64,000 nt of DNA from Candidatus Gottesmanbacteria bacterium. GTDB taxonomy: Bacteria; Patescibacteriota; Microgenomatia; UBA10105; UBA927. Made by a program: the position numbers and the translations under genes. The notes beneath the pieces were generated by a model. That model made no database searches, was not told the origin of the DNA, and saw nothing but the letters and a program-made list of their open reading frames with translations. Each line of letters opens with the position of its first letter. Positions within the stretch are counted from its first letter, which is position 1. The DNA lies in the NCBI GenBank assembly GCA_963711735.1, contig CAVQFA010000005.1, positions 269,778 through 333,777 on the forward strand. Reading direction: 5' to 3'. This document shows, in pieces, positions 1,613-2,722 of the stretch.

Positions 1613-2722
1613 ATGGCAAAGAATAATGCTAAGATAAAGATTCTTTCACCGAAAAAAAGCGACAGACAAATGCTGAAAAGCTTTCTTATCGGGATCGGAA
1701 TAATTCTTTTTGCACTCGTTGTTGTCATAACATCCAGACAGGTTACTACACAGAAATCTGTCGGCAGGTCCAAAGCAGGGGAAGTTACAACACCCGTCTA
1801 TATGCGTGCATGGGTGCCGACAACAACCGGACTGAAAGTGTGGGCATGGCAAAAATACAATAATTCATGGGCATGGCATAAATCAAACGGCCAAACCGGT
1901 GTAGACCTGTCCTATTTATCATATTGGAGAGGCGGAGACGGCAAGAAAGGTCCATGTTCACCCGAGTTTTATACAGGAGGAAAATGTACCATAGATTGGA
2001 TGGATTTCGATAAGGAAAATGGCGTCAATTACCTTCGTCTCATGCAGGTAGTCGGAAATACTGCACTTATGTGGGGGTATCACCAGACGTCAACAGGTTC
2101 CTGGGAACGTGATAGTGTATACAGCGGAACAAACGGACTGGACCTTTCTGTTTTACCATATTTTACAAGTTCATCTCCCTTAGGTCCGTGCGGCAAGGAT
2201 TCTATATATCAAACATCGTGCGGAGTGAAGGGATTTGATATAAATATGGAAGGATCGAATGCATATTGGCGGTTTTGGAAACCAACGACAAAGGGAGTTT
2301 TGGTATGGGCGTATAAATGGGAAAATGGCGGTTGGCAATGGACGGGAAATCCTGTTGATATAAAGTATCTTACGAATTGGGTAGGAAGCGGAAATATCAA
2401 AGGTCCGTGTCATCCGGATTTCAACGGCGGATCATCGACGAATTGTACGATAGATGGGATTGATTTTGATACGGAAGGACTTATTCCGTACCTTCGTGTC
2501 TGGCAAAAAACGCAAAACGGCGCACGTGTCTGGGCATATATGCAATCCGGTAGTTCATGGGCTTGGGACCCGGGTAACGGAAATACCGGTATTGACATTT
2601 CATACGTATACGGTTGGGAAGGAGGACATGCTCCCGGAGTACCTGAGGGACCATGTTATACTGCGTATTCTCCCCGTAAAACAGCATGTGATCTCGGAGG
2701 ATTATCGTTTAGTCAGGAGTAA
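1613..2722 (+). CDS. Secreted or membrane-anchored protein with four tandem repeats of about 90 aa, rich in Trp and Cys; function unknown
   Basis: An RBS (aagggaggtga) precedes the ATG at 1613. There is an N-terminal hydrophobic anchor (FLIGIGIILFALVVVITS). Four repeats follow, each with VWAW..W..G..D..Y...W.G....GPC......C.IDG.DFD..G. Confidence 0.6.
   Translation: MAKNNAKIKILSPKKSDRQMLKSFLIGIGIILFALVVVITSRQVTTQKSVGRSKAGEVTTPVYMRAWVPTTTGLKVWAWQKYNNSWAWHKSNGQTGVDLSYLSYWRGGDGKKGPCSPEFYTGGKCTIDWMDFDKENGVNYLRLMQVVGNTALMWGYHQTSTGSWERDSVYSGTNGLDLSVLPYFTSSSPLGPCGKDSIYQTSCGVKGFDINMEGSNAYWRFWKPTTKGVLVWAYKWENGGWQWTGNPVDIKYLTNWVGSGNIKGPCHPDFNGGSSTNCTIDGIDFDTEGLIPYLRVWQKTQNGARVWAYMQSGSSWAWDPGNGNTGIDISYVYGWEGGHAPGVPEGPCYTAYSPRKTACDLGGLSFSQE

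Follow-up and report, generated by a model that had tools for sequence, protein, structure and literature searches.

The stretch of DNA analysed here, called the window hereafter, comprises 64,000 nucleotides of a Candidatus Gottesmanbacteria assembly (contig CAVQFA010000005.1). It is an ordinary piece of bacterial chromosome of about 42% GC that carries a nucleotide-salvage cluster and housekeeping genes. Between dcd and glmS lies a gene encoding a protein of 369 amino acids (aa), named P0001, which consists of a membrane anchor followed by four tandem repeats rich in Trp. As judged from all the libraries searched, P0001 and its only orthologue, P0004, are genuine orphans that form a tiny lineage-specific repeat family outside the described families. 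The features of the gene and of its immediate flanks are as follows.

958-1542, plus strand: dcd (PF22769, E 1.5e-44), flanking the P0001 gene
1600-1604, plus strand: Shine-Dalgarno motif GGAGG, 8 nt 5' of the ATG, read from the sequence
1613-2722, plus strand: coding sequence of the orphan repeat protein P0001, 369 aa (from the list of open reading frames; one syntenic orthologue, P0004, E 1e-67)
1682-1732, plus strand: hydrophobic signal-anchor or uncleaved signal segment, aa 24-40, FLIGIGIILFALVVVIT (Kyte-Doolittle hydropathy and flanking charges)
1796-2029, plus strand: repeat 1, aa 62-139, Cys115/Cys125, acidic patch intact (IDWMDFDKE), from self-diagonals and alignment
2030-2263, plus strand: repeat 2, aa 140-217, Cys193/Cys203, the most divergent unit, patch degenerate (VKGFDINME)
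2264-2488, plus strand: repeat 3, aa 218-292, Cys266/Cys278, acidic patch intact (IDGIDFDTE)
2489-2719, plus strand: repeat 4, aa 293-369, Cys348/Cys359, patch degenerate (DLGGLSFSQE)
2743-2779, either strand: terminator-like hairpin with a 16-bp stem, usable from both strands, between the convergent stops of P0001 (2722) and glmS (2786)
2786-4576, minus strand: glmS, convergent to the P0001 gene (GATase and two SIS domains)

The reading frame of P0001 opens with an ATG at 1613 and its stop codon ends at 2722. These coordinates were those of the original prediction, a first annotation made by reading the window, and they were retained. A strong Shine-Dalgarno site precedes the frame. A GTG at 1604 falls within the Shine-Dalgarno GGAGG, and ATG 1613 is therefore the likely start. 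The placement of the gene between dcd and glmS was equally correct, both neighbours being recognized by their domains, and so was the strong bidirectional terminator announced at its end: the 78-nt intergenic segment at 2723-2800, which includes the hairpin, folds with an energy of -29.9 kcal/mol (z = -8.6). The P0001 gene is real and conserved. On the other hand, the hint that it could be tied to glmS, and through it to the synthesis of cell-wall precursors, had to be abandoned, since glmS is convergent on the other strand and the orthologue lies about 5 kb away from glmS. A functional connection of P0001 to glmS or to cell-wall precursor synthesis is thus not supported.

The ectodomain of P0001 corresponds to the C-terminal 308 residues and is made of four tandem units with a period of 75-78 aa. 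The number of repeats agrees with what had been read initially and is carried by ungapped self-diagonal BLOSUM62 scores of 149, 104 and 89 at offsets 230, 75 and 153, whereas 100 shuffled versions of the protein gave a mean of 35.4 (standard deviation 5.4) and a maximum of 53. The repeat length of about 90 aa proposed at the time was too long and, given the actual period, the segment 75-165 then taken as a single repeat exceeds one unit. Tyr2, Arg4, Trp16, Trp25, Asp37, Gly-Pro-Cys52-54, Cys64 and Glu74 are invariant in all four units of P0001; upon addition of the four units of P0004, eight in total, all of them stay invariant except Asp37. Hence the several invariant Trp mentioned in the original prediction come down to two (W16 and W25 of the unit), the three or four others being present in three of the four P0001 units. 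The GPC...C pair described for each repeat was indeed found in all four, with 9-11 residues between the paired Cys. The IDG.DFD acidic patch, also attributed to every repeat, is intact in units 1 and 3 but degenerate in units 2 and 4, its final Glu alone being invariant. Unit 4 is further characterized by a GGHAPGV loop and by the ...FSQE end, both common to P0004, and a WxGG motif (Trp-x-Gly-Gly) occurs in five of the eight repeats of the two proteins.

The P0001 ectodomain contains 21 Trp in 308 aa (6.8%) and 14% Gly. Pairwise identity among the four units ranges from 24 to 44%, and because they have diverged at the DNA level the duplication must be old. The repeats follow one another with no low-complexity linkers, and the junction between them (DFD-x-EG-xx-YLRVW) is among the best conserved stretches in the alignments of P0001 with P0004.

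Upstream of the repeats, the N-terminus of P0001 comprises a 22-aa tail rich in Lys and Arg ahead of the hydrophobic stretch. The membrane anchor that had been postulated there was recovered as a single segment, with a Kyte-Doolittle 19-mer maximum of 2.75 at aa 21-39, while all other segments of the protein stay at or below 0.55. Seven Lys and Arg residues flank the anchor on its N-side versus four on its C-side, and the full-length AlphaFold2 (AF2) model contains a helix at aa 15-49. P0001 therefore displays what is expected of a Sec-exported protein anchored by its N-terminus in type II topology, i.e., a single hydrophobic helix near the N-terminus, about 17-20 aa long, and an excess of positive charge on its N-side, and P0004 shares this layout when counted from its probable start M20. 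No clear signal-peptidase site, lipobox or sortase signal was seen in P0001. An outward orientation of the repeats is predicted from the positive-inside charge bias, and a place outside the cytoplasm agrees with the close spacing of the conserved Cys pairs.

P0004, the sole true homologue, has the same organization as P0001, with a basic tail, an anchor, four units and an ...FSQE C-terminus. It matches the four-repeat profile at E 1e-67 through four stretches of 53-81 bits each, and aligns collinearly with P0001 at 34-37% identity. It is annotated as a protein of 382 aa (6994-8142 of its contig), with a start that overlaps hydS; the true start is probably an internal ATG following GGGAGG, which would make the annotation 19 codons too long. 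Both proteins are described by a common definition: an anchor, then four units of the form Y-[LM]-R-x-[WF] ... V-W-x-[WY] ... G-x-W ... G-P-C-x9-11-C-x-[IV]-x-G-x-D-F-x-x-E, and an ...FSQE end. Units 2-4 of P0004 share 56-63% identity among themselves and each carry a GGHAPGV...GPCYDP loop, a type of loop found in P0001 in unit 4 only. This suggests concerted evolution or a recent re-duplication of the repeats in the P0004 lineage. In spite of this homogenization, the number of repeats is four in both proteins.

The contig that encodes P0004 is a 38-kb JGI metagenome contig, syntenic with the window for the large and small subunits of a NiFe hydrogenase, dcd, glmS, dNK, tmk and tdk. There, the P0004 gene stands between the hydrogenase small subunit gene and dcd, divergent from hydS, and is followed by an open reading frame for a membrane-like protein of 151 aa on the minus strand. 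It is thus on the opposite side of dcd compared with the P0001 gene, which indicates a local rearrangement inside an otherwise conserved synteny. As the position of the gene differs between the two loci (hydS-dcd on the metagenome contig, dcd-glmS in the window), what is shared is the inherited synteny of related genomes rather than a conserved operon. The neighbouring proteins are 73% (dcd), 72% (dNK), 69% (HydS) and 62% (GlmS) identical between the two loci. When these values are set against the 34-37% of P0001 and P0004, the repeat proteins appear to have evolved about twice as fast in amino-acid sequence, as is typical of exposed surface proteins. Their architecture has been kept although the GC contents of the two genomes differ by 10 points. 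Besides, the metagenome contig carries directly after dcd, at 9328-10872, a three-domain fusion of MtrA, thymidylate synthase and pterin-binding DUF4346, whereas in the window ThyA is encoded as a stand-alone protein at 43200-44165, distant from dcd.

The rarity of the family was established by an exhaustive HMMER scan with the four-repeat profile over 1.84 billion representatives of about 15 billion proteins. The phyletic distribution that emerged is extremely narrow, with one true homologue (P0004) and five marginal matches (P0005-P0009). Word-indexed searches over 5.8 billion clusters, with the protein itself among the queries, returned the query and P0004 alone. Back-translated pattern scans of the species genomes in GTDB and of the contigs in JGI metagenomes and in IMG/VR found no relatives, phage and plasmid records searched by tblastn gave no match, and the 64-kb window contains no paralogue. 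The opinion that the repeat belongs to no nameable family was upheld by every library searched, i.e., Pfam, NCBIfam, PHROGs, PADLOC and the sequences of the PDB. In Pfam, P0001 matched no family at E <= 1 and P0004 none at E <= 0.1; nothing relevant to either protein was present in NCBIfam (E <= 10), PHROGs or PADLOC. In particular, GW/SH3_8, CW_binding_1/2, LysM, SLH, Ricin B, carbohydrate-binding modules (CBM), tectonin/Hyd_WA and DUF346/PLL gave no match (Pfam E <= 1; NCBIfam E <= 10). When PDB chain sequences were compared with the protein and with four-repeat, eight-repeat, register-permuted and full-length profiles, a non-significant hairpin of a WWE domain (8r5n, E 1.5) was the only outcome. 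A general literature search returned only unrelated work on Plasmodium and Blastomyces.

For full-length P0001, modelled with no alignment, AF2 gave a predicted local distance difference test score (pLDDT) of 41. The secondary structure of this model consists of four-strand meanders that span the repeat boundaries, for example an acidic strand at 129-135 followed by YLRxW (138-147), xVWAW (150-158) and GxWxW (164-170), and later repeats are alike. A single repeat, modelled from the eight-repeat alignment, reached a pLDDT of 65 and is compact, with five strands (2-9, 12-21, 24-27, 63-66 and 69-74), a C-terminal hairpin and a loop of about 35 residues that bears the Cys pair. The top 50 Foldseek matches of the low-confidence full-length model were all beta-propellers, including GH32/43/62/117/130, RSL, LGI1-EPTP, sialidases, CyRPA, semaphorin and DDB1, with template modelling scores (TM-scores) of 0.15-0.27. 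This result is a hint at a blade-like local geometry, not a fold assignment. The structure search on one repeat, a check proposed along with the original prediction, was run with the AF2 unit model and matched no known domain. No clear lectin match was obtained by sequence or by fold, and none to tectonin by sequence.

A resemblance to propellers was also seen among the five marginal sequence matches, three of which are Kelch-type propeller proteins and one another propeller-type repeat. P0005 is a clear-cut Kelch propeller (detected at E 1e-93 by the same Pfam scan that finds nothing in P0001), P0007 and P0008 are Kelch-like proteins with 'GYFGGG...CTIDRIDFSxET' repeats, P0006 belongs to another propeller type (EPTP/LVIVD-like), and P0009 is a SusE-like repeat protein of 934 aa. 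On going from the four- to the eight-repeat profile, the matches to P0005 (E 3.5e-7 to 1.9e-12), P0008 (4.6e-4 to 6.7e-9) and P0007 (4.1e-4 to 3.7e-8) were strengthened, while the E-values of P0009 (1e-3 to 0.6) and P0006 (to 2.5e4) worsened. A profile built from the P0004 repeats only, which took no part in picking these matches, scored 40 bits on P0005, 35.5 on P0008 and 27 on P0007, and 200 column-shuffled profiles reached at most 4.4 bits on these three proteins. With the same profile P0006 scored 0.1 bits, and this lead was dropped. By hhalign, a di-repeat profile aligned with the repeats of P0007/P0008 at a probability of 91%. The resemblance consists of two short elements, at unit positions 13-40 (xVWAW..G.W.W) and 62-78 (C.IDGIDFD.E after YWxGG). 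In that alignment the WxGG of the family falls on the 'GYFGGG' of P0007/P0008, and the spacing to the next strand is broken by the Cys loop. The likeness of the repeats to Kelch-type proteins is thus specific but thin in sequence terms, and membership of P0001 in the Kelch family is not established by these comparisons.

From these data, our preferred reading, which we hold tentatively and with somewhat less than even confidence, is that P0001 is a lineage-restricted, fast-evolving, membrane-tethered surface protein whose four repeats form a propeller-like, probably closed array acting as a non-enzymatic binding module. Its N-terminal segment, a signal-anchor or a signal peptide left uncleaved, would tether the protein to the cytoplasmic membrane and leave the 308 C-terminal residues on the outer side. 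Each all-beta unit of about 77 aa would begin with a Trp-rich three-strand meander (YLRVW / xVWAW / GxWxW), continue with the loop of about 35 residues containing Cys-x9-11-Cys, probably a disulfide stapling this loop, and be closed by an acidic strand (C-x-IDGIDFD-x-E), which may pair with the opening strand of the unit that follows. Such pairing would join the four repeats into one continuous and probably closed propeller-like array instead of independent beads. Continuity is suggested by the lack of linkers, by the conservation running straight across the repeat junctions and by the AF2 meanders over the boundaries, and the five strands and long loop of the single-repeat model are in line with it; closure is suggested by the fixed number of four repeats and by the end phases conserved in P0001 and P0004, the C-terminal ...FSQE strand possibly completing the first unit into a four-fold ring. 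A glycan or some other surface ligand, located on the cell's own envelope or on a partner cell, may be bound at repeated sites made up of the Trp, Arg and acidic positions. Binding to carbohydrate or to a cell surface, already surmised in the original prediction, is plausible in view of the aromatic- and Gly-rich composition of the beta repeats, while lectin and CBM families match P0001 neither by sequence nor by fold.

Several points weigh against this reading. The unit of 77 aa is far longer than known propeller blades, four-bladed propellers are rare, and the case for ring closure comes from two sequences. Neither AF2 model is confident (pLDDT 41 for the full length, 65 for the single repeat), and the low TM-scores obtained with Foldseek come from a model flagged as unreliable by the tool. 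The similarity to Kelch proteins is confined to two short motifs worth 2-12 bits per copy, its significance arises only from summing 9-12 copies in repetitive targets, the score of P0005 includes a large composition-bias correction, and the Pfam models Kelch_1-6 and PF24681 do not match P0001 at E <= 1. Moreover P0009, which is not a propeller, keeps 23.6 bits with the P0004-only profile (at most 15.6 with the shuffled control), through two short motifs, TYRLKVWQ...GQN (Y-R-L-K-V-W-Q) and GPC-x5-C. Finally, the organism carries a NiFe hydrogenase and may be an anaerobe, in which the machinery for making disulfides could be limited.

Four other explanations were weighed. The main rival, which we consider possible but rather unlikely, is that the repeats are beads on a string, each of them an autonomous small beta domain of about 77 aa representing a new CBM-like or wall-binding module of the size of GW/SH3-like or WWE domains, and the whole a multivalent anchor to wall or glycan with no ring. 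In the chosen register the ectodomain amounts to exactly four complete units with no remainder, the unit size agrees with known binding modules of about 80 aa, a single repeat folds compactly in AF2 with its five strands and C-terminal hairpin, and the sole PDB sequence match, although non-significant, is a WWE domain. However, the single-repeat model resembles no known domain, flexible linkers are absent and the junctions are among the best conserved stretches, and four repeats are kept in both proteins despite homogenization. The WWE likeness is moreover a single 15-residue hairpin (hhalign probability 2%) that is lost with a permuted profile, which matches WWE neither in PDB nor in Pfam, and the GW, SH3, LysM, CW-binding and SLH families, as well as ricin, do not match either. 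Descent from a Kelch or another established propeller, with each 77-aa unit standing for two degenerate blades and about eight blades in total, appears unlikely. It would account for two segments of the unit resembling the strand-2/strand-3 element of Kelch blades, positions 13-40 being similar to 'NDVWAFETTNNSW' of P0005 and positions 62-78, after 'YWxGG', to 'GYFGGG...CTIDRIDFSSET' of P0007/P0008, and for the replication of the match with the P0004-only profile. Yet the Pfam Kelch_1-6 and Kelch propeller-domain models find nothing at E <= 1, the scores per copy stay at 2-12 bits, the two groups of Kelch-like matches fail to align with each other (hhalign E 0.63), and two four-stranded blades would require more than the five strands predicted per unit.

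An enzyme that attacks envelope glycans through a catalytic domain of propeller type, for example a sialidase or a glycosidase resembling GH43, GH32 or GH62, would agree with the GH32, GH43, GH62 and GH130 propeller enzymes found at the top of the Foldseek matches of the low-confidence full-length model; we nevertheless consider it very improbable. Indeed, these matches are at TM-scores of 0.15-0.27 and 9-16% identity, no glycoside hydrolase family is detected by sequence, and the near equivalence of the four repeats, which have their conserved residues in common, favours repeated binding sites over one asymmetric active site. In addition, five-bladed glycoside hydrolase propellers are not made of 77-aa sequence repeats. 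As for a spurious or decaying open reading frame, in which the repeats would be a DNA-level tandem duplication with no protein function, the occurrence of only two sequences in public data could speak for it, but it is effectively refuted by the strong Shine-Dalgarno site and terminator, by the divergence of the DNA among repeats in which the Trp, Cys, Gly and Pro positions of the protein are kept, and by an intact orthologue of the same architecture in a genome 10 GC points apart.

The preferred reading of a tethered, propeller-like binding module could be extended further. P0001 and P0004 might found a new structural family, namely a Trp-rich lectin of propeller-like fold, closed as a four-fold ring (or as an eight-fold one in a dimer), with a 77-aa blade and a disulfide-stapled ligand-binding loop, not descended from Kelch or other known propellers, and serving attachment to a partner cell or to the cell's own envelope glycan in a poorly sampled, possibly host-dependent lineage. 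Taken in full, this extended proposal is unlikely in our estimation, although its consequences deserve mention: such a protein would enlarge the repertoire of propellers and aromatic platforms by a new type of repeat, and would offer a way into surface recognition in a bacterial lineage that is unsampled. Independently of it, the family is well delimited and almost devoid of sequence neighbours, with two members among about 15 billion predicted proteins, and the structural constraint on it is clear, since Trp, Arg, Gly-Pro-Cys, Cys and Glu are invariant over eight repeats. The Cys-x9-11-Cys pairs are probably disulfides. The reach of the finding is narrow, as it concerns one small clade with no experimental system and a function approached by inference only; a greater interest would arise only if the structure proved to be a new fold. 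It has no bearing on glmS or on the synthesis of cell-wall precursors.

The remainder of the window provides the genomic context of the gene. A dense cluster of nucleotide-salvage and deoxynucleoside triphosphate genes extends over 958-13489 on the plus strand and is broken only by the orphan gene and glmS. The corresponding features are:

406-888, minus strand, running past the window start: NiFe hydrogenase small subunit, Oxidored_q6, 160 aa, with the large subunit just upstream on the source contig
958-13489, plus strand: salvage cluster, in the order dcd, deoxynucleoside kinase, two HAD phosphatases, HD hydrolase, thymidylate kinase, thymidine kinase, P-loop-like open reading frame, PNP/UDP phosphorylase, IMP dehydrogenase, GMP synthase

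The P-loop-like frame of this cluster (8896-9597) has no Pfam match. Mevalonate-pathway genes occupy 22492-26148, with two GHMP-kinase frames, the second of which is fused to a NUDIX domain, and a diphosphomevalonate decarboxylase-like frame whose match to the family is limited to the C-terminal domain and the last part of the N-terminal one. At 58537-58704, a second tRNA-like sequence begins 8 nt after a tRNA-Leu(CAA); it scores 29.6 bits in Rfam, just at the threshold of 29, and is not called by ARAGORN. Three open reading frames of 274-316 aa, at 13571-14482 (minus strand), 15018-15968 (plus strand) and 26182-27006 (plus strand), have no Pfam match at E <= 1e-5, and none of them is Trp-rich or repetitive. 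GlmS and ribosomal protein S2 of the window are singletons at 90% clustering, and the organism is therefore poorly sampled. The presence of a NiFe hydrogenase together with salvage-heavy genes would be compatible with an uncultivated fermentative lineage.

P0001 was finally compared with known repeat systems. Kelch propellers (Kelch_1-6, PF24681; galactose oxidase, Keap1 and NanM-type proteins), which are typically binding platforms, are like P0001 all-beta tandem repeats with a hydrophobic strand and GG (YWxGG), followed by a strand-turn-strand element with conserved aromatic residues and Trp, although in P0001 and P0004 the WxGG is limited to five of the eight units and the Cys loop interrupts the spacing. 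Their unit is nevertheless a single four-stranded blade of 44-56 aa, compared with 75-78 aa, five predicted strands and a loop of about 35 aa in P0001. They comprise 5-7 blades instead of four units, and the P0001 unit adds a Trp hairpin and the Cys-x9-11-Cys loop. The likeness spans 15-30 residues per copy, and no Pfam Kelch model matches. The fucose lectins RSL and AAL (PF07938; Ralstonia solanacearum), small carbohydrate binders built from repeats, share with P0001 the arrangement [IL]-R-V-[YW]-x4-NG-x-hydrophobic-...-W-x-G-x-W, with an invariant Arg and Trp per repeat, and RSL entries appear among the Foldseek matches of the low-confidence model. Their repeat is about 45 aa long, versus about 77 aa in P0001. 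Of the fucose triad Arg-Glu-Trp, the Arg is invariant in P0001, but no Glu follows about 11 residues later. Identity with RSL/AAL was rejected, as hhalign against an RSL sequence covered 16 columns at a probability of 0.8% and PF07938 did not match.

With hemopexin-like propellers, P0001 has in common the presence of four repeats, and the comparison is by repeat number alone, since no Pfam match links them to P0001. They are the only well-known four-repeat propellers, often extracellular and disulfide-bonded, with blades of about 45-50 aa. WWE domains (PF02825; Deltex, RNF146) approach the P0001 unit in length (about 75-80 aa), and the hairpin 'VWEWENDGGAW' resembles 'VWAYKWENGGWQW'. They are cytosolic eukaryotic readers of ADP-ribose. 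This candidate was also rejected, because the likeness is limited to a hairpin of 15-19 residues, the permuted profile A6 found no PDB match and its six units no Pfam WWE, and hhalign against an RNF146 WWE sequence gave a probability of 2% over 15 columns. Lastly, the surface modules of monoderm bacteria (GW/SH3_8, CW_binding and aromatic-platform CBMs) neither match P0001 by sequence nor resemble the single-repeat model. It is nonetheless with these modules that P0001 shares its general organization, in which an N-terminal export signal or anchor precedes several aromatic-rich repeats (about 20-100 aa each), and by analogy a role in non-covalent binding to an envelope polymer may be common to them.

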